From the NCBI GenBank assembly GCA_045568435.1, contig JBJLBB010000001.1:100305-164304 (forward strand): DNA of 64,000 nucleotides. The letters run 5' to 3'. Below the pieces are notes generated by a model, which was given only the letters and a program-made list of their open reading frames with translations, did not search any database and was not told where the DNA came from. Both the position numbers and the translations under genes were made by a program. Shown here one piece after another: positions 3,028 through 21,954 of the stretch (the stretch's first letter is position 1; each line of letters starts with the position of its first letter). The DNA is from Candidatus Poseidoniaceae archaeon (lineage in GTDB: Archaea > Thermoplasmatota > Poseidoniia > Poseidoniales > Poseidoniaceae).

Positions 3028-3654
3028 TCAACCTAGTCTGCTACGAACATTTTGAATTGAATCCTTGGATAATATTCTCGATTTTTCTAGAAGTTCTTGA
3101 GATTCATCCGATAAATCCCCTACCATTTCTTCAGGTAGTGAACCAATATTGATGTCGACATTGAACAGCGCACCTTTCACTGCTGCACTAGCCAATAAAG
3201 ATGCCACACCAACATCTGAAACAGCGTTAGCATTTCCCTTATGTGCTAATTCGGGCAGTACTTCCAATAATTCAAAGGCTAATTTAGCAGTTTCCATAGG
3301 CACTAAAGCAGCATTTAGAGTTGCCTTTCTAATCGCATTTCGCCTCTCTTGAATCTCATCATCATTTGATTTAGGCATTCTGAAACATTCCATGACTTTA
3401 TCAAATGAATCACTATCATCCTTTGCTAATTTTCCAGCCTTTGTAAAAATTTTTATCGCTACTGATTGGGCTTTTTCGGCACAATTCCATCCATCCTGCC
3501 ATTTTTCTTTACCAATTGTTAAATCTGCAACCATGCAAGTCAATGCTGCAGCTTGACCCAAGGCGATTGCACTAGCAGTACCTCCTCCGGGGGTAGGTGA
3601 TGATGAAGCCAGAGCAGATTGAAAGTCTCTAAGGCTCATTTCCATCCAATCCAT
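3028..3654 (-). CDS. Formiminotetrahydrofolate cyclodeaminase (FTCD C-terminal domain protein)
   Basis: ASSSPTPGGGTA motif, GNANAVSDVGVA, KGALFNVDIN. Start placed at ATG 3654, just after the ftcD stop (3663 also possible). Confidence 0.9.
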   Translation of the reverse strand: MDWMEMSLRDFQSALASSSPTPGGGTASAIALGQAAALTCMVADLTIGKEKWQDGWNCAEKAQSVAIKIFTKAGKLAKDDSDSFDKVMECFRMPKSNDDEIQERRNAIRKATLNAALVPMETAKLAFELLEVLPELAHKGNANAVSDVGVASLLASAAVKGALFNVDINIGSLPEEMVGDLSDESQELLEKSRILSKDSIQNVRSRLG

Positions 3655-3655
3655 A

Positions 3656-4696
3656 TCATTCATCCCCTCTAAGAGCCCATTCAATGATTCTATTTTCTGC
3701 ATCAAATGATTCAAGATATTCTAGACCTAATCCCTTAATTGCCGAATTCACCAATGACTTTTCATCACTATTTTCCGGATTTTCACTAAACCACAATCCT
3801 GCATCAAGCATAACTTTCAATGGAACTAATCCAACAAGTTCACTACCGAGTAATTCAACTCCATGATCTCCTGCAATAGCCCTGCATGCCTCAAAAGCAA
3901 TATGTAATGGACAGGAATTGACATCCAATAAATTCATTGAAACTTGACTTATTTTATTTGCCTCCATAGTAACACCCATACCTTGGACTTTGGTCAACAT
4001 TCCTGGTATTCTTGTTCTTTTTTGACCCCTTTTAATCAATCTACCCGAACTTCTCACCATAGAACCAATTATCTTAGAGACTCTGGCATCTTTTTCATCA
4101 ACATTAACATTGTATGCAATCAATATGTCTCTAGAACCTATCGTAATACCACCTGATTTTGCAATAGTTGAACTCCATTGCTCAGGGCCAAAATCAGGTA
4201 AGCGTGTATTTTCTGAATGTTTTGTTTCCCCTCCACTCATACGACTTTCTAAACCTTCATATTCACCCTTACGTAATGTCGAAAGTAGAAATCTATCTTC
4301 ATGAGTTGCCGAGTAACCATAAAGGAAAGTTGGTACAGAAAAATCATTTGCAACACGCTTAGCCAAATCCTGTGCATATTTCGTACAATCTTCCATATTA
4401 GCTCCTTCTAGCGGTACAAATGGGCAAACATCTACAACACCGAGTCTTGGATGTTCTCCTTTATGCTCGGCCATGTCAATATTTTCAATGGCTGATTGAA
4501 TTAAATTATACGCAGCCTCTTGAACAGAACTTGGGGAACCGGCAATTGTAATGACTGTCCGGTTATAGTCAGCATCGGGTTCTACACCCAAAACTGAACA
4601 GCCATCGACTTTCCTAGCGGTGGAAACTATTCTTTCGATTTTATCTAAATCTCTACCTTCGGAAATATTTGGAACGCATTCGATTATGGCTGCCAT
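3656..4696 (-). CDS. ftcD: Glutamate formimidoyltransferase
   Basis: IIECVPNISEGR N-terminus, DADYNRTVIT, HKGEHPRLGVVDVCPFVP, VSMNL. ATG 4696 chosen as start. Confidence 0.93.
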   Translation of the reverse strand: MAAIIECVPNISEGRDLDKIERIVSTARKVDGCSVLGVEPDADYNRTVITIAGSPSSVQEAAYNLIQSAIENIDMAEHKGEHPRLGVVDVCPFVPLEGANMEDCTKYAQDLAKRVANDFSVPTFLYGYSATHEDRFLLSTLRKGEYEGLESRMSGGETKHSENTRLPDFGPEQWSSTIAKSGGITIGSRDILIAYNVNVDEKDARVSKIIGSMVRSSGRLIKRGQKRTRIPGMLTKVQGMGVTMEANKISQVSMNLLDVNSCPLHIAFEACRAIAGDHGVELLGSELVGLVPLKVMLDAGLWFSENPENSDEKSLVNSAIKGLGLEYLESFDAENRIIEWALRGDE

Positions 4697-4741
4697 GTAT
4701 GTGTCGTTCAAAAGAAGGACTTTGAACTTAAGTATTGAAAA

Positions 4742-11470: not shown

Positions 11471-11512
11471 TTGAATCATAATCCTCAAAGACAATGCAGT
11501 ATAGCGTCACCT

Positions 11513-13543
11513 ATGGGCGATAATGGGTCTTCACTTAGAGATTCAATCTCGTTAGGTATTCCCGACCAATTACCTGAACACCCTGGTCTTGATGATTCGG
11601 TTGACCATGCACCAGATAGGAGACAAGTTTTGAGCCCGAGCGAGAAAAAACTCGCTCTAAAGAATGCTCTCAGATATTTCAGTCGAGAACATCATGAAGT
11701 TCTCGCTCCTGAGTTTCTACAAGAATTAAATTCCTTTGGTAGAATAATTATGAATCGATTTAGACCGACTGAGTATCAAATGAAAGCTCATCCAATTTCG
11801 CATTACCCTGCTAATTCCCTTCAAGCAGCATCAATAATGTTGATGATTCAAAATAATCTCGACCCCGCTGTGGCTCAATTCCCTCATGAGTTAATCACAT
11901 ATGGTGGAAATGGTTCTGTTTTTCAAAACTGGGCACAATACAGATTAACTATGAAGTATCTATCTCAAATGTCAAATGACCAAACTTTGGTAATGTATTC
12001 TGGACATCCAATGGGATTATTCCCTTCTCATCAAAATGCTCCGCGTGTTGTCGTGACTAACGGAATGGTTATTCCAAATTATTCATCGGTCAATGATTAT
12101 GAGAAAATGAATTCCTTGGGAGTCACTCAATATGGTCAAATGACTGCTGGTTCATACATGTACATTGGACCTCAAGGTATTGTTCATGGCACTACTCTAA
12201 CACTACTCAATGCTGCTAGAATACATCTTAATTTAGATCCCGAAAAGGACCTTTCAGGAATTACATTTGTTACTTCAGGTCTTGGAGGGATGTCAGGCGC
12301 TCAAGCAAAAGCCGCAGTAATTGCAGGCGCATCTTCAATAGTGGCCGAAATCAATCCTCATGCAGCAAAAAAGCGACATGAACAGGGTTGGTTGAGTGTA
12401 CTTTCATATGATGTAGATGAAGCCATAGATTTGATGCTAAGCAATGCCGAATCGGGTACTGCAATATCCATTGGATTTGTTGGTAACATTTCGGACTTGT
12501 GGTCAAGATTAGTAGAAAGAAATGTCCATGTAGACTTAGGCAGTGACCAAACTAGCCTTCACAATCCATGGCAAGGCGGATACTTTCCTTCTGGATACAC
12601 TTATGAAGAGTCATCGGATTTAATGTCTAAAGATAGTGATTTGTTTTGTCAAAAGGTACGTGAAACATTACTTGAACACATATCGAGTATTCAGAAAATG
12701 ACCGAACGGGGGATGTATTTCTGGGATTATGGCAATGCGTTTTTATTAGAAGCTTCAAGAGCGGGAGCGGATATTAAAAATCCTGATGGCGGATTTATTT
12801 TCCCTAGTTATGTTGAAGACATTATGGGTCCAATATGTTTTGATTATGGATTTGGACCATTTAGATGGGTTTGCTGCTCAGGGGACCCTGAGGATTTAGA
12901 AACAACGGATAAAATTGCTTGCGATATTTTATCTCAAATGGCTATTGATGCACCAGATACAATTAAACAACAACTCAATGATAATATTAGATGGATTAAG
13001 CAAGCAGGACAAAATAAAATGGTCGTCGGAAGTCAAGCAAGAATCCTCTATGCTAATGATGAAGGCAGGAGAAATATTGCTAGCGCTATGAATGCTGCAA
13101 TTGCAGATGGACGTCTAAAGGGTCCTGTCGTACTTGGTAGAGACCACCATGATGTTTCAGGCACTGATAGTCCATTTAGGGAAACTGCCAATATCTCTGA
13201 TGGTTCTATGTTTACTGCAGATATGGCAGTTCAGAACTTCGTTGGAGATGCCTTTAGAGGTGCAACTTGGATAAGCCTCCACAATGGAGGAGGAGTTGGA
13301 TGGGGAGAGGTTATCAATGGAGGATTTGGTATGCTGATAGATGGCTCCAAGAGTTCGGAAGATAATATTCAATCAATGCTTCACTGGGATGTAAATAATG
13401 GAGTTGCCAGAAGAGCGTGGGCTCGAAATGATGGTGCGATTGAAGCGATTAAGGATGCTATGGACAAAGAACCTAAATTAATAGTCACTTTACCACAAAA
13501 AGCACAAGAGGGTCTTATCGACTCACTATTCACAGGGGAGTGA
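11513..13543 (+). CDS. hutU: Urocanate hydratase (long form)
   Basis: HELITYGGNG, QMTAGSYMYIGPQGIVHGT, GLGGMSGAQ, SDQTSLHN, GRDHHDVSGTDSPFRET. About 676 aa with an N-terminal extension; ATG 11513 preferred over TTG 11471. Confidence 0.95.
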   Translation: MGDNGSSLRDSISLGIPDQLPEHPGLDDSVDHAPDRRQVLSPSEKKLALKNALRYFSREHHEVLAPEFLQELNSFGRIIMNRFRPTEYQMKAHPISHYPANSLQAASIMLMIQNNLDPAVAQFPHELITYGGNGSVFQNWAQYRLTMKYLSQMSNDQTLVMYSGHPMGLFPSHQNAPRVVVTNGMVIPNYSSVNDYEKMNSLGVTQYGQMTAGSYMYIGPQGIVHGTTLTLLNAARIHLNLDPEKDLSGITFVTSGLGGMSGAQAKAAVIAGASSIVAEINPHAAKKRHEQGWLSVLSYDVDEAIDLMLSNAESGTAISIGFVGNISDLWSRLVERNVHVDLGSDQTSLHNPWQGGYFPSGYTYEESSDLMSKDSDLFCQKVRETLLEHISSIQKMTERGMYFWDYGNAFLLEASRAGADIKNPDGGFIFPSYVEDIMGPICFDYGFGPFRWVCCSGDPEDLETTDKIACDILSQMAIDAPDTIKQQLNDNIRWIKQAGQNKMVVGSQARILYANDEGRRNIASAMNAAIADGRLKGPVVLGRDHHDVSGTDSPFRETANISDGSMFTADMAVQNFVGDAFRGATWISLHNGGGVGWGEVINGGFGMLIDGSKSSEDNIQSMLHWDVNNGVARRAWARNDGAIEAIKDAMDKEPKLIVTLPQKAQEGLIDSLFTGE

Positions 13544-13547
13544 AATT

Positions 13548-15092
13548 ATTACTACAATAACTCTTGATGGTAACACGCTATCTTCATCTGAGATTTGGCG
13601 CGTGGCTACTGGTAATGCTGAAGTTGACATCTCCCAAAGTTCTTGGGATAGAATTATCAAATCACGCAAGGTAGTTGAAGATATTTTACAAAGTGGGGAA
13701 ATTGTTTATGGAATCAATACTGGTTTTGGTGCACTAGTAAACCAAACAATTTCCGACAAAGATTTACAACAATTACAAGTTAATCTAATTCGTTCACATG
13801 CCACTGGAATCGGTGAATTAATGTCGAAAGAGTCTGTTAGGGCTATGATGACTGCAAGAATTAATTCATTTGCTAAAGGTTACTCAGGAGTCCACCCTAA
13901 TGTAGTCCAACAATTACTCGACTTCATCAACTTAGACATTACGCCAGCTATACCGCGTATCGGTAGCCTCGGTGCCAGTGGTGATTTAGCACCTCTTTCG
14001 CATATGGCATTAGCATTGATAGGAGAGGGTGAAGTATTAATTGAAGGAAATAAAGTTTCTAAAACTAAAGAGGTTATAGTTGAAAAGGGACTTATACCGC
14101 TAGAATTGGGTGCAAAGGATGGTTTATCGCTAATCAATGGTACAAGTCAAATGTTGAGTTTACTAGTAGAGTCAGAACAAATTCTCTCACAATTACTACC
14201 ACTTGCTGACATCATAATGTGTGCTTCTCTAGAGGCATTCAAAGGAACAGCAGTTCCTGCAGATTCTAGAGTTCATGATGCAAGGCCTCACCCGGGGCAA
14301 AAATTAGTGGCATCTAGAATAAGACAAATCATGTCACAGTCAGAAATACTTGCTAGTCACGCAGATTGTGGTAAAGTGCAAGACCCTTACTCATTTAGGT
14401 GTGCACCACAAGTACATGGGGCAGTAAATGAAAGCCTAATGCAACTAAGGTCGACGTTGGAAATTGAAATCAACAGCACCACAGATAATCCATTAGTGTT
14501 TTTTGATAGTGAAGATGATGAGCAAAAGATTGTTTCTCAAGGTAATTTCCATGGAGAAATATTAGGATTAGTAGCAGATAAAATGTCACTTTCTATCTTT
14601 GAATTGGCTTCTATAAGTGAGAGAAGGATGGATCAATTGCTCGATAATAAGAAAAGTGGACTGCCGCCATTTTTAGCTTCTAACAGCGGTCTTGAATCAG
14701 GACTCATGATTGTACAATATGTCGCAGGTGCGTCCTTGTCTGAACTTCATGGCCATGCAGCACCCAGGACAGCATTCTCAACCAGTACTTCTGCTGGACA
14801 AGAAGACCATGTTAGCATGGGCGCAACTGCCTGTTGGAATTTATTACAAGCAACTCAAAGATTGTCTGAAGTACTTGCTTGCGAACTACTTATTGCTTGC
14901 CAAGCACTGGAATTCGAAAGTTTAAAACCATCACCATTCATCCAATCAATTGTTAAATTAGTGAGAGATATTTCACCAAAAATTGAATCTGATAGATCCA
15001 CTAGTAGTGATTTAATTGCAATTTCTAATTCTCTTAAAGAAGGCGGATGGCTATCTAGAATTGAAGCAGAGAATAGTAGACTTTCTAATTAG
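13548..15092 (+). CDS. hutH: Histidine ammonia-lyase, inferred ATT start
   Basis: VYGINTGFG, MIO-forming GASGDLAPL, QDPYSFRC.PQVHG, GNFHG, QEDHVSMG. The typical N-terminus TITLDGNTLS lies upstream of GTG 13602 with no canonical start codon in frame. Confidence 0.93.
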   Translation: MTTITLDGNTLSSSEIWRVATGNAEVDISQSSWDRIIKSRKVVEDILQSGEIVYGINTGFGALVNQTISDKDLQQLQVNLIRSHATGIGELMSKESVRAMMTARINSFAKGYSGVHPNVVQQLLDFINLDITPAIPRIGSLGASGDLAPLSHMALALIGEGEVLIEGNKVSKTKEVIVEKGLIPLELGAKDGLSLINGTSQMLSLLVESEQILSQLLPLADIIMCASLEAFKGTAVPADSRVHDARPHPGQKLVASRIRQIMSQSEILASHADCGKVQDPYSFRCAPQVHGAVNESLMQLRSTLEIEINSTTDNPLVFFDSEDDEQKIVSQGNFHGEILGLVADKMSLSIFELASISERRMDQLLDNKKSGLPPFLASNSGLESGLMIVQYVAGASLSELHGHAAPRTAFSTSTSAGQEDHVSMGATACWNLLQATQRLSEVLACELLIACQALEFESLKPSPFIQSIVKLVRDISPKIESDRSTSSDLIAISNSLKEGGWLSRIEAENSRLSN

Positions 15093-18654: not shown

Positions 18655-18730
18655 TGGTGGGCTCGGAGAGAATTGAACTCTCGATCTTCGCCATGTCAAG
18701 GCGACGTCATAACCCCTAGACCACGAGCCC
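18655..18730 (-). tRNA. tRNA-Val(GAC), CCA encoded
   Basis: Reverse complement GGGCTCGTGGTCTAGGGGTTATGACGTCGCCTTGACATGGCGAAGATCGAGAGTTCAATTCTCTCCGAGCCCACCA; anticodon stem TCGCC/GGCGA with loop TT-GAC-AT; T-loop GTTCAATT. Confidence 0.96.
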
Positions 18731-18779: not shown

Positions 18780-18935
18780 TCAACTGACGATCTTAGAGAT
18801 TTTACCAGTGCATCCTTCCTGAGAGCAAAAACCACCCATTCGAACTCTTCCATTTTTCATTTTAATCAAATTACCATTTTTTATTGGACCATAAGTTTTG
18901 CACTTCAAACAGTATCCGGATATTTGTTCTGACAT
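18780..18935 (-). CDS. Small Zn-ribbon protein, DUF5679-like (51 aa)
   Basis: Not in the ORF track. Manual translation MSEQISGYCLKCKTYGPIKNGNLIKMKNGRVRMGGFCSQEGCTGKISKIVS (YCxKC...MKNGR...G.C...C). In-frame ATG at 18956 is an alternative start. Confidence 0.75.
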   Translation of the reverse strand: MSEQISGYCLKCKTYGPIKNGNLIKMKNGRVRMGGFCSQEGCTGKISKIVS

Positions 18936-19154
18936 CAGTATCAAATGGTCGTACATAGTGATTTAATTTGAAACCTTCCTTGAGCTTGGAGTTAAAACCT
19001 CCAAAAAGTCCTAATTATTGCTGTTGAGGGGGTACTTTGGATGCCAAAATCACAATTCCTTGTAATCACATCTCATGCGATGTGCTTCTAAACGCTATGC
19101 TGAGTCGCTGTAAACCTTATTTTATTAGTTTATTAAAAAATGTTTTTTCCACAA

Positions 19155-19182
19155 ATGTCGCATAATGTATGTTATACGACAC
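19155..19182. other. dif-like Xer recombination site (11-6-11)
   Basis: ATGTCGCATAA-TGTATG-TTATACGACAC; inner 10-bp arms form a 9/10 inverted repeat; central 17 nt match 16/17 to E. coli dif; lies in an AT-rich intergenic gap. Confidence 0.7.
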
Positions 19183-19209: not shown

Positions 19210-19527
19210 TTATGATCTTGTAAAAATATCAGCATCGATGTCGAAAATGCCTACCAATGGAGGGCCAATTAGGCACGATTGAACTCCGCCATCGCTAGTG
19301 TCCAGTTTTTGCTGAGATGATTCTGAAATAGATTTCATTGATTCTCTGTCATCAAAAACCGATTGGAAAATGAATAGAAAATCATCGTCTGAAGATTTGG
19401 CATACCAAGAACGAATACAGCCATCTTGCCGATTTCTAAATTCAACTCTTGATGAAAGCATTCTTTCCAATCGAGCTTCATTACCTGGCTTGGCAGAACA
19501 AACAACTGTTTCTAAAATTCTTGGCAT
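19210..19527 (-). CDS. Antibiotic biosynthesis monooxygenase (ABM)-like dimeric alpha/beta barrel protein
   Basis: AKPGNE..LE..L....QDGCI......DDDFLFIFQSVF pattern; 105 aa. Confidence 0.6.
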   Translation of the reverse strand: MPRILETVVCSAKPGNEARLERMLSSRVEFRNRQDGCIRSWYAKSSDDDFLFIFQSVFDDRESMKSISESSQQKLDTSDGGVQSCLIGPPLVGIFDIDADIFTRS

Positions 19528-19596: not shown

Positions 19597-20886
19597 TCAA
19601 TGCGAGACATATTTGCCCTCAACGATAGTTCCAATGAATGGAGTGTCCGAAGGTCGCGTACACCATGATTCCCAATTATTGGAATCTAATATGTTTAAAT
19701 TAGCCACCGAACCTTCCTCGATACGTCCATGTTTCATTCCACTCGGGTGTGGTGTTGTTTCAGCAGGATTGCGTGTGGAGCATACAAGTGCAACCAAAGG
19801 GTCAACTTTACATCGATTGACTAGTAATGATGAAAGGAAGGGGATACTCAGAATTTGATTATTAGGATTGAAGTCTGAGGCAATCGACCAAATATAATTA
19901 TCTTCAACCATCTTATTGAAATCTGGCCATTCCTCTCCCATTGAATACGGCGTCCCAGGTAAAAACCCAGTATTGACACCTGCAGCATTCATTTTATGCC
20001 TCGCTTCATCATTTGTGTAATGTGCATGGTCTGCACTTTCGACTTTCATTTCTGCAGCTAAGTCTCCACCACCGCCATCAGTAAACTCATCGATATGCAA
20101 CCTCAGATCAAGTCCAGCGTTTTTTGATTGACGCAGGATTTCTTCGGATTCTTCAACATTAAACCAACCAGGTTCACAAAAAACATCTGTAGAGCGTGCT
20201 ATTCCTTGTTCACAAATAGCGGGTAATTGTTCAGATATTAATGACTCGAAATAGTCCTTATGGGTAACTCCCTTTGGGATGGCATGTGCACCAAGCCAAG
20301 TATGGTCCATCGATGGTAAATCGGGGCAAAGAGAGAGTTTTTTGGAAACTTCAAGTAACCTGAGTTCAGTTTCGACATTTAGTCCATAGCCTGATTTTGA
20401 TTCTATATGCGTAGTACCACTTCTAAATGCGGATTTTAGGCGCCTCTTACCTAGATCAAATAATTCCGAGTCTGTTGATTTCCTCGTATGATTTACAGTC
20501 GATACAATCCCTCCTCCCATCGAAGCAATTTCTGAATAACTTTTCCCATTTAACTTCCATCTGACTTCACGGGAACGGTCACCTGACCATATTATGTGAG
20601 AATGAGAGTCGACTAATCCGGGAATGACCGAGCGACCATTTAGTGATACAATTCTATCATTTGATAATAAATTAATATTTGATAAATCCGATAATTCTGT
20701 ATTCGGCTTTCCATATTCTTCGATTAATTCATTTGAATTAGCGATTTTTATTATTTGGTCATTTTCTATAACTATTCCTTTCTCGTAGGCGATTAATGAA
20801 TCTTCATCTTTCATTGCTAATCCTGTCAAAGGGCCGTTTCCTGACAAATGTGCTAGCGGACCAATATCAACTAAAATCGTCCGCAT
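19597..20886 (-). CDS. hutI: Imidazolonepropionase
   Basis: PGLVDSHSH, THIESKSGYGL, LGAHAIP, DVFCEPG, LHIDEF, ASDFNP. Start refined to ATG 20886. Confidence 0.93.
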   Translation of the reverse strand: MRTILVDIGPLAHLSGNGPLTGLAMKDEDSLIAYEKGIVIENDQIIKIANSNELIEEYGKPNTELSDLSNINLLSNDRIVSLNGRSVIPGLVDSHSHIIWSGDRSREVRWKLNGKSYSEIASMGGGIVSTVNHTRKSTDSELFDLGKRRLKSAFRSGTTHIESKSGYGLNVETELRLLEVSKKLSLCPDLPSMDHTWLGAHAIPKGVTHKDYFESLISEQLPAICEQGIARSTDVFCEPGWFNVEESEEILRQSKNAGLDLRLHIDEFTDGGGGDLAAEMKVESADHAHYTNDEARHKMNAAGVNTGFLPGTPYSMGEEWPDFNKMVEDNYIWSIASDFNPNNQILSIPFLSSLLVNRCKVDPLVALVCSTRNPAETTPHPSGMKHGRIEEGSVANLNILDSNNWESWCTRPSDTPFIGTIVEGKYVSH

Positions 20887-20937
20887 AACTGTCGCTAGAT
20901 GCTGAGGGTTCAAGAATAATGTCATATTGGGACATCC

Positions 20938-21954
20938 ATGAGCGGCGATGGATGGACCCTGGGTATTGAGTCGACAGCCCATACATTGTCATTCGGATTG
21001 GTAAATAATGAAGGGATTCCTTTTCCATCAATTTCCGATACAGTAAAGCCCGATAAAGGAGGCATACATCCTCGGCAGGCTGCTGACCATCACAAGGAAG
21101 TAGCACCTGAATTATTTAGAAGAATTCTTTCGGAAAATAATTTACAGCCAACCGACATTTCCAATATTGCATTTTCTCAAGGACCAGGGCTGGGGCCCTG
21201 TCTACGCATTGGGGCATCGATTGCTAGAGGATTATCCAATCGACTAGATGCTCCATTGATCGGAGTTAATCATTGCGTAGCACATATTGAGATTGGAAGG
21301 CAACAATGTGGTTGCGATGACCCGGTTTTACTATATGTTTCTGGAGGAAATACACAAGTTATTGCACGACTCGAAGGACGATATCGTGTCTTAGGCGAAA
21401 CCCTTGACATTGGTATTGGCAATATGCTAGACAAATTTGCACGAGCACAAGGAATTCCATTCCCTGGTGGGCCTGTAATAGAAAAATTGGCAGCTGAATG
21501 GCTTAAAGATAATCCTAATCATGACATGGAAGGTTTAGAATTACCCTATGCTGTTAGGGGAATGGATTTAGCATTCTCCGGAGTCTTAACTGCGGCATTG
21601 AAATTAGTGGAAAATGGGCACTCTTTAGGTTCTGTTTGTTGGTCATTACAAGAGCATGTGTTTTCTGCATGTGTCGAAGTTGCAGAGAGGGCATTATCTC
21701 ACACTGGTAAAACTGAACTTCTTCTTGGAGGGGGTGTTGCTTGTAATAATCGATTACGTTCTATGTGTAGCATTATGTCGCAAGAAAGAGATTCTGAATC
21801 TTTCGCCCCACCTCGAATGTATTGCATCGATAATGGTACAATGATTGCCAGACTTGGTTGGTTAGAGCAACAAGTTGGTAGGATCACCCTGCTAGAGAAG
21901 AGTGCTATTGACCAGTATCTAAGGACAGACCAAACACCAATCACTTGGGCATAA
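20938..21954 (+). CDS. kae1: tRNA N6-threonylcarbamoyltransferase Kae1
   Basis: LGIESTAH, GGIHP..AA.HH, GPGLGPCL, VNHCVAHIE, SGGNTQ, DNGTMIA. Confidence 0.95.
   Translation: MSGDGWTLGIESTAHTLSFGLVNNEGIPFPSISDTVKPDKGGIHPRQAADHHKEVAPELFRRILSENNLQPTDISNIAFSQGPGLGPCLRIGASIARGLSNRLDAPLIGVNHCVAHIEIGRQQCGCDDPVLLYVSGGNTQVIARLEGRYRVLGETLDIGIGNMLDKFARAQGIPFPGGPVIEKLAAEWLKDNPNHDMEGLELPYAVRGMDLAFSGVLTAALKLVENGHSLGSVCWSLQEHVFSACVEVAERALSHTGKTELLLGGGVACNNRLRSMCSIMSQERDSESFAPPRMYCIDNGTMIARLGWLEQQVGRITLLEKSAIDQYLRTDQTPITWA

Follow-up and report, generated by a model that had tools for sequence, protein, structure and literature searches.

The stretch of DNA analysed here (64 kb, hereafter the window) contains an archaeal SRP RNA, as detected with Rfam, and is therefore assigned to an archaeon. 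Its close relatives are Poseidoniales MAGs, and proteins with an antibiotic biosynthesis monooxygenase-like (ABM) domain identical to the one encoded in the window were found on TARA and other marine contigs, which places the window in a marine Group II (Poseidoniales) genome. The genes surrounding the site described below are of the housekeeping type and comprise hutH, hutU and hutI as well as genes for a formiminotransferase, Kae1, MetRS, a proteasome ATPase and others. The histidine-utilisation set, consisting of formiminotransferase-cyclodeaminase, urocanase, histidine ammonia-lyase and an imidazolonepropionase-like amidohydrolase, is dispersed around the site (window 3028-4711, 11471-15092 and 19597-20982). 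No Orc1/Cdc6 gene was detected among the 40 window ORFs scanned with Pfam.

The site itself lies within a non-coding gap of 253 bp between two ORFs at 18780-18956 and 19210-19527, and the only ORFs that overlap it encode 42 aa or less. On one side, the ABM-domain gene (19210-19527, minus strand; Pfam PF03992, E = 5e-07) ends with its stop codon 28 nt before the site. On the other side, about 219 nt further on, follows the probable start of a small zinc-ribbon gene on the minus strand with a match to DUF5679 too weak to pass the family cut-off (18780-18935; Pfam PF18930, E = 7e-4), for which the ATG at 18935 is the likely true start. Downstream of the DUF5679-like gene, a tRNA-Val(GAC) gene was found at 18655-18730 on the minus strand by ARAGORN and by Rfam (RF00005, 66 bits). 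Apart from this tRNA and chance-level matches, Rfam searches across the intergenic region returned nothing at the gathering threshold or at E values up to 5. The DUF5679-like protein of 50 aa is unusually conserved, with 21 of 47 alignment columns invariant and a consensus reading VEGFCLKCKTYGPIKDG..NGRTRMAGFCSQ.GCTGKISKIVS.

The candidate dif site, ATGTCGCATAATGTATGTTATACGACAC, occupies positions 19155-19182 and can be written as ATGTCGCATAA-TGTATG-TTATACGACAC. An earlier note on this DNA had proposed a dif-like 11-6-11 architecture for it, and this was borne out. The left arm, ATGTCGCATAA, lies at 19155-19165 and is the presumed half-site for one XerA monomer; the spacer TGTATG of 6 bp, presumably the region of strand exchange, lies at 19166-19171; and the right arm, TTATACGACAC, lies at 19172-19182. 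The right arm is an inverted copy of the left one, as had been claimed, with nine of the 11 arm positions complementary and two mismatched. The similarities to known sites given in the same note were likewise reproduced: 16 of the 17 central positions match E. coli dif (18/28 over the whole site in register), and the 22-nt core is identical to loxP at 20 of 22 positions. When up to three mismatches were tolerated, exactly one copy of the site was found in the 64-kb window, and the site was also the sole window match to CGYATAA-N6-TTATRCG with up to two mismatches. Inverted repeats of the 11-6-11 type with at least 9/11 pairing, however, occur 13 times in the window, and first-order Markov simulations predicted 12.9 ± 3.5. 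Such repeats are thus present at chance level, and the bare symmetry of the site proves nothing. The significance of the site is in its match to the dif consensus and in its conservation across genomes, not in its symmetry.

Conservation was assessed by scanning one genome per GTDB species with the pattern GTCGYATAA-N6-TTATRCGAC, which was found in at least 119 stretches, and in at least 51 Poseidoniales MAGs. Each of these MAGs, which are incomplete, contains one match when the strict pattern is counted, and in all of them the match sits between the ABM and DUF5679 orthologues; among the matches listed from this strict-pattern scan, none from Poseidoniales lay outside this synteny. The conserved gene order reads HAL-DUF835-EF-hand-p117-DUF5679-[site]-ABM-HutI-Kae1, and the tRNA-Val gene is part of the conserved neighbourhood as well. 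The spacing ranges from 15 to 50 nt between the ABM stop codon and the site and from 180 to 240 nt between the site and the DUF5679-like gene. The ABM proteins of most scanned Poseidoniales MAGs share only 40-55% identity with that of the window. The 11th arm positions, which were outside the search pattern, are also kept as T and A in these MAGs. Within the bounds set by the strict pattern and the incomplete MAGs, the site thus occurs once per MAG, the best evidence here for one copy in each genome, and it is conserved throughout the order; these are the two properties for which the earlier note had suggested a check.

Since a scan with the motif itself is subject to ascertainment bias, a second, bait-free sample of 80 metagenome loci was collected by alignment to the DUF5679 protein alone, which removes this bias. 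Of these loci, all 69 with at least 300 nt of upstream sequence carry the site within it, and 182-239 nt separate the site from the protein core. Counted over 18 arm positions, 62 of the 69 have no arm mismatch, five have one and two show mirror-image changes. The information content, computed over the 65 unique sequences from these loci, is close to 2 bits per position in the arms GTCG-Y-ATAA and TTAT-R-CGAC, with about 1 bit at the Y/R position, and falls to 0.3-1.2 bits in the spacer and to 0-0.5 bits in the flank on the DUF5679 side. The outer 11th position is a T in the left arm of 44/65 sequences and an A in the right arm of 59/65. The spacer differs by clade while the arms are fixed: TGTATG/CATACA, TGTGAG, GGTAAG, TGGTAG and CGTACA were found, among others.

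Within the window's species, four metagenome populations show polymorphism in the flanks (19132-19152 and 19182), and no variant was called in the core at 19156-19181. The C>T polymorphism at 19182, present in natural populations and as the variant in locus L006, renders the outer pair symmetric. Apart from allelic bubbles in the flanks, the Logan contigs from the four metagenomes showed only joins from other organisms that share the tRNA; a recombination junction in the spacer was not among them. On a Logan contig from one marine metagenome (run X4), the end of the tRNA-Val gene is joined directly to the start of a dif-like core (18731 / 19156) and the DUF5679-like gene is skipped. This contig probably stems from a different organism, whose tRNA-Val gene adjoins a dif-like site.

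Several loci depart from the common arrangement. In many loci the asymmetric core GTCGCATAA-TGTATG-TTATACGAC reads as its exact reverse complement while the genes on either side are the same. This reverse-complement form occurs in the window's clade (L055, L106 and L155-L157) and in a second clade, as can be seen by comparing window 19155-19182 with L078:5044-5067. In one sublineage (L224:5-28 and L228:813-836) each arm carries three mirrored changes, giving TGGCTGATAA-N6-TTATCAGCCA with a spacer of the usual family; this variant looks like a switch in recognition specificity. Locus L228 is without the ABM gene and has retained the site, from which we conclude that the site is not an appendage of the ABM gene. 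Finally, on the MAG contig L069 two inverted Kae1-HutI-ABM-site modules stand face to face (sites at L069:2504-2527 and L069:3170-3195) with tRNA-Val and the DUF5679-like gene between them, and the second site is degenerate (TTCGTATAA-CCCCGA-TTATACGCA). This arrangement is either a true inverted duplication or a chimeric co-assembly.

Between the site and the DUF5679-like gene (window 18957-19154, read in the minus-strand sense), two more non-coding blocks are common to about 110 Poseidoniales loci. In the window they lie at about 19089-19103 and about 19001-19040, again in the minus-strand sense. One block, CGCAGT-N4-CGTTT, is found 45-85 nt from the site; the other consists of AAGTA together with a run of five to seven G or C and is followed by a T-run. 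Some lineages have the block with the G/C run as AAGTAGGGGGG, whereas other lineages have the reverse complement of this sequence. Neither block matched Rfam.

Outside the Poseidoniales, the motif was found next to genes for Xer recombinases. In four archaeal MAGs from other lineages (L016, L049, which is a Methanoperedens, L085 and L119) the same motif precedes, by 16-70 nt, a gene for a tyrosine recombinase of about 275 aa, for which the best match among solved structures is XerA of Pyrococcus abyssi (4a8e, E = 6.5e-48), followed by XerA of Thermoplasma acidophilum (5hxy). About eight bacterial loci have a Xer-like gene beside the motif. Since the motif adjoins Xer genes in archaea and in bacteria, we attribute the motif class to Xer core sites across domains. 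On the other side of the site, L016 (2081-2506) and L119 (6635-7060) encode the same 142-aa protein (MKK/EIFIKEKQ.NIIL.LG.KSPQNILDICKKTD...), which could be a conserved partner of the xerA/dif module. A near-identical symmetric 24-mer, often of the form ATGTCGCATAA-N6-TTATGCGACAT, is present in MAGs of CPR/Patescibacteria (Saccharibacteria, Berkelbacteria and Moranbacteria) and of Bdellovibrionales (L011, L018, L027, L036, L037, L044, L048, L051, L063, L099 and others; L019, L024, L041, L087, L094 and L128). Presumably these 24-mers are the symmetric-arm dif sites of those bacteria.

In Poseidoniales themselves (Marine Group II, MGII), hmmsearch over all ORFs detected no recombinase gene near the site, neither in the 64-kb window nor in the at least 51 Poseidoniales loci. 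Homology searches with a profile of the four xerA-linked recombinases and with the T. acidophilum XerA sequence as queries gave only proteins of Methanoperedens, DPANN and Thermoplasmatales among the 120 matches listed, and no MGII XerA. At the level of annotation, the search for xerA that the earlier note had recommended did find the gene in one MGII MAG, in which "Tyrosine recombinase XerA, xerA_1" is listed with PF00589 and arCOG01241 (PMC9723583, supplement). According to one table of this annotation, the best match of xerA_1 is MG2_0055 of the MG-II genome of Iverson (PMC9723583). The gene adjacent to the site, hutI, is MG2_1144, and xerA would therefore lie far from the site in MGII. At the xerA locus of Thermoplasma volcanium no palindromic ATAA-N6-TTAT site was found nearby.

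In archaea, xerA and dif have been described both next to each other and apart, and with an annotated xerA gene that is not adjacent to the site the Poseidoniales would resemble the Thermococcales. With the dif sites of Pyrococcus abyssi, Thermococcus kodakarensis and Saccharolobus solfataricus and with dif2 of Thermoplasma acidophilum, the Poseidoniales site shares the length of 28 bp, the 11-6-11 layout and the TAA-N6-TTA core, the sites of Thermococcales, Sulfolobus and Thermoplasma being compared here by architecture and core and not letter by letter. The TAA-N6-TTA core is the most conserved feature of the archaeal dif sites reported (PMC11840125). Further features held in common with archaeal dif are the intergenic position, the single copy and the conservation among relatives, and the archaeal dif/XerA system, with a single homomeric recombinase and no FtsK, would also be shared. 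In its outer arm, GTCGYATAA, the Poseidoniales site is closer to dif of the bacterial or CPR type and to the xerA-linked sites of Methanoperedens and of Methanofastidiosia-like and DPANN-like MAGs. The sites of the four archaeal xerA/dif modules belong to the same class, GTCG[C/T]ATAA-N6-TTAT[G/A]CGAC, including spacers of the TGTA type. There, however, the site is 16-70 nt from xerA, whereas the Poseidoniales site has no recombinase gene within 8-64 kb; since the site lies so closely upstream of xerA in these four modules, autoregulation is possible in them.

Bacterial dif sites (E. coli dif with XerC/XerD and, in systems with a single recombinase, difSL with XerS and difH with XerH) have the same 11-6-11 architecture, and the string CGCATAATGTAT.TTAT is shared with E. 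coli dif. The E. coli site has a distinct XerD arm, whereas in Poseidoniales the right arm copies the left one. A second difference is that bacterial dif sits at a skew inversion and none was seen at the Poseidoniales site in the window. Archaea are without FtsK/KOPS control. The likeness to loxP/Cre of phage P1 lies in a homomeric tyrosine recombinase, symmetric arms and an asymmetric spacer, and the TGTATG of the spacer falls within the 20/22 identity. In contrast, loxP has arms of 13 bp and a spacer of 8 bp and belongs to a phage/plasmid system. The resemblance to loxP is thus at the level of sequence class and is not one of membership.

The earlier note expected the site to mark the terminus region, and this expectation was not confirmed. 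In the window, neither GC skew nor GC3/AT3 by strand and by side switched convincingly at the site, and a clear change of skew or of gene orientation was not apparent at 19.2 kb. A change-point scan of four-fold sites gave a weak and broad AT-skew optimum at 18-27 kb with a polarity unlike that of a classical terminus. We count these skew analyses neither for nor against a terminus. In CM001443.1 (2,064,136 bp) the site is at position 1,269,044, and rough linear scaling of the locus tags places two Orc1/Cdc6 genes near 0.70 and 1.76 Mb. The site would then be roughly midway between them, which depends on several assumptions and serves only as a lead. A location of dif in the region of fork convergence is typical of Thermococcales and not of Sulfolobales; Duggin et al. 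in 2011 reportedly placed Sulfolobus dif outside the fork-fusion zones. A position at the terminus is thus not a strictly defining property of archaeal dif.

Different functions were considered for an element with these properties. A dimeric transcription factor controlling the ABM or the DUF5679-like gene could use it as an operator, which would be conserved together with the local regulon. The strictly conserved position between the same two genes in Poseidoniales loci would agree with such an operator, and fixed arms around a variable spacer, as well as the mirrored changes in L224 and L228, are also typical of sites bound by homodimeric regulators. However, the site comes after the stop codon of ABM, and about 190-220 nt separate it from the promoter-like block that follows downstream, immediately in front of the DUF5679 start codon; in L228 the site was kept after the loss of ABM. 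Many similar copies upstream of genes, taken by the earlier note as the mark of an operator, were not seen: there is one copy per MAG in at least 51 MAGs and no second one in the 64 kb of the window, so that no regulon pattern emerges. In other phyla the contexts of the motif are unrelated and only a Xer recombinase gene recurs next to it, and the 18/28 match to the bacterial dif consensus also speaks against an operator, which we consider quite unlikely. A recombination site of the Xer or integrase type could on the other hand have a main role other than dimer resolution, as an attB or as a landmark bound by XerA, for example an SMC boundary. Integrating elements exploit dif-like sites in bacteria (PMC5357621), and in several euryarchaea the boundaries of SMC domains fall in dif regions, yet the boundary of T. 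kodakarensis is independent of dif or XerA (PMC11840125). The motif class is carried by 25 viral contigs of IMG/VR, among which a matching viral attP was looked for as the earlier note had suggested; MGII genes, however, are present on 0/25, and the contigs inspected resemble ordinary tailed phages with helicase, methyltransferase and tail-fibre genes. Contigs or scaffolds break at or beside the site in L006, L007, L102, L114 and L229, but in the sample of 80 loci contigs ended within about 250 nt of the site in 11 cases, which is close to the random expectation, and assembly breaks were therefore rejected as evidence of recombination. We infer that a 24-28-mer common to co-occurring species can itself break assemblies. 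No element flanked by two sites was found in about 120 Poseidoniales loci, all of which show the same two neighbours except for L228 without ABM, short-read assemblies making this weak evidence. The idea of an integration hotspot, also put forward in the earlier note, thus found no counterpart in flanking duplicated sites, inserted elements or an MGII-linked viral attP, and we regard a main role as attB or landmark as very unlikely.

A hairpin in RNA or DNA, selected for its structure and acting as terminator or stabiliser of the ABM mRNA or as a cruciform, would explain why the site is found 15-50 nt past the ABM stop codon and is followed by T-runs. Read on the gene-sense (minus) strand of the window, the two mismatches between the arms turn into G-U pairs, a 48-nt RNA from the window folds at -15.2 kcal/mol (z = -4.1), and the changes in the arms of L224 and L228 keep the pairing. 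In many lineages, however, the asymmetric site points the other way with respect to the genes, and in L078, where the gene-sense strand has a C-A mismatch, the RNA folds no better than shuffled sequences (z = -1.65). No covariation was found between the variable Y and R positions (Fisher p = 0.18), and the sequence of the arms, beyond their pairing, is invariant where ABM is about 45% identical. In addition, L228 retains the site without an ABM gene to terminate, and no Rfam family reached or approached its gathering score. The occurrence in both orientations, the independence of Y and R and the invariant arms argue for a site in double-stranded DNA that a symmetric protein recognises and not for a hairpin, and selection for a folded structure appears highly improbable to us. 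The existence of 13 comparable repeats in the window when 12.9 are expected would allow for a chance palindrome devoid of function. Such a palindrome is refuted by the conservation data, since 67 of the 69 independently sampled orthologous loci have at most one arm mismatch in the midst of unconserved flanks and the site occurs once in each of at least 51 MAGs; the probability left to it is close to nil.

We therefore return to the reading as a recombination site. The 28-bp element is probably the XerA-type dif site of the Poseidoniales chromosome, an assignment made from comparative sequence data. The same sequence adjoins xerA genes in other archaea, and the site is for this reason very probably a XerA dimer-resolution site. 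The core of the earlier proposal, a dif-like site for a single homomeric Xer recombinase, is in this way supported by the single match per MAG, the conservation throughout the order and the linkage to xerA elsewhere, and at the level of annotation by the xerA gene listed for MGII. In the literature searched no paper on dif or XerA in Poseidoniales was found, in line with the statement in the earlier note that no dif had been described for the lineage. The probable Poseidoniales dif is thus undescribed in that literature, yet it is an expected member of the archaeal dif/XerA system.

By analogy with this system, two monomers of the single Xer recombinase XerA would bind the two arms, T-GTCG-Y-ATAA and its inverse, which are 11 bp long and nearly identical. 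A dimer formed through the fusion of sister chromosomes by homologous recombination would carry two directly repeated copies of the site, and these could synapse as a XerA tetramer. The strands would be cut at the borders of the 6-bp spacer, as at the sites of other tyrosine recombinases, and strand exchange through a Holliday junction would resolve the dimer into monomers. The binding of MGII XerA, the positions of cleavage and the role of the site in dimer resolution are predicted here from the related systems.

The 28-mer, the two conserved non-coding blocks and the adjacent DUF5679-like protein may further be imagined to form an order-specific dif module with accessory control, which we consider unlikely on present evidence. 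If true, such a module would supply directionality, timing or the boundary of a chromosome domain, as FtsK/KOPS does in bacteria, and the repeated changes in the orientation of the core against its neighbours would be a mark left by XerA acting in vivo.

Poseidoniales are uncultured and among the most abundant archaea of the surface ocean, and to our knowledge nothing is known about the replication and segregation of their chromosome. A dif site would provide a fixed single-copy landmark by which MAG assemblies of this order can be oriented and checked, and a reference point for mapping origins and zones of fork convergence through metagenome coverage. The 28-mer is a ready substrate for a heterologously expressed MGII XerA, and the mirror-image arm variant of one sublineage, together with the C/T wobble in the arms, may serve as natural experiments on how XerA reads its site. 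Finally, the Poseidoniales site is nearly identical to CPR-bacterial dif and to the core of loxP, which points to a narrow sequence space within which recombinases of the Xer/Cre type operate.
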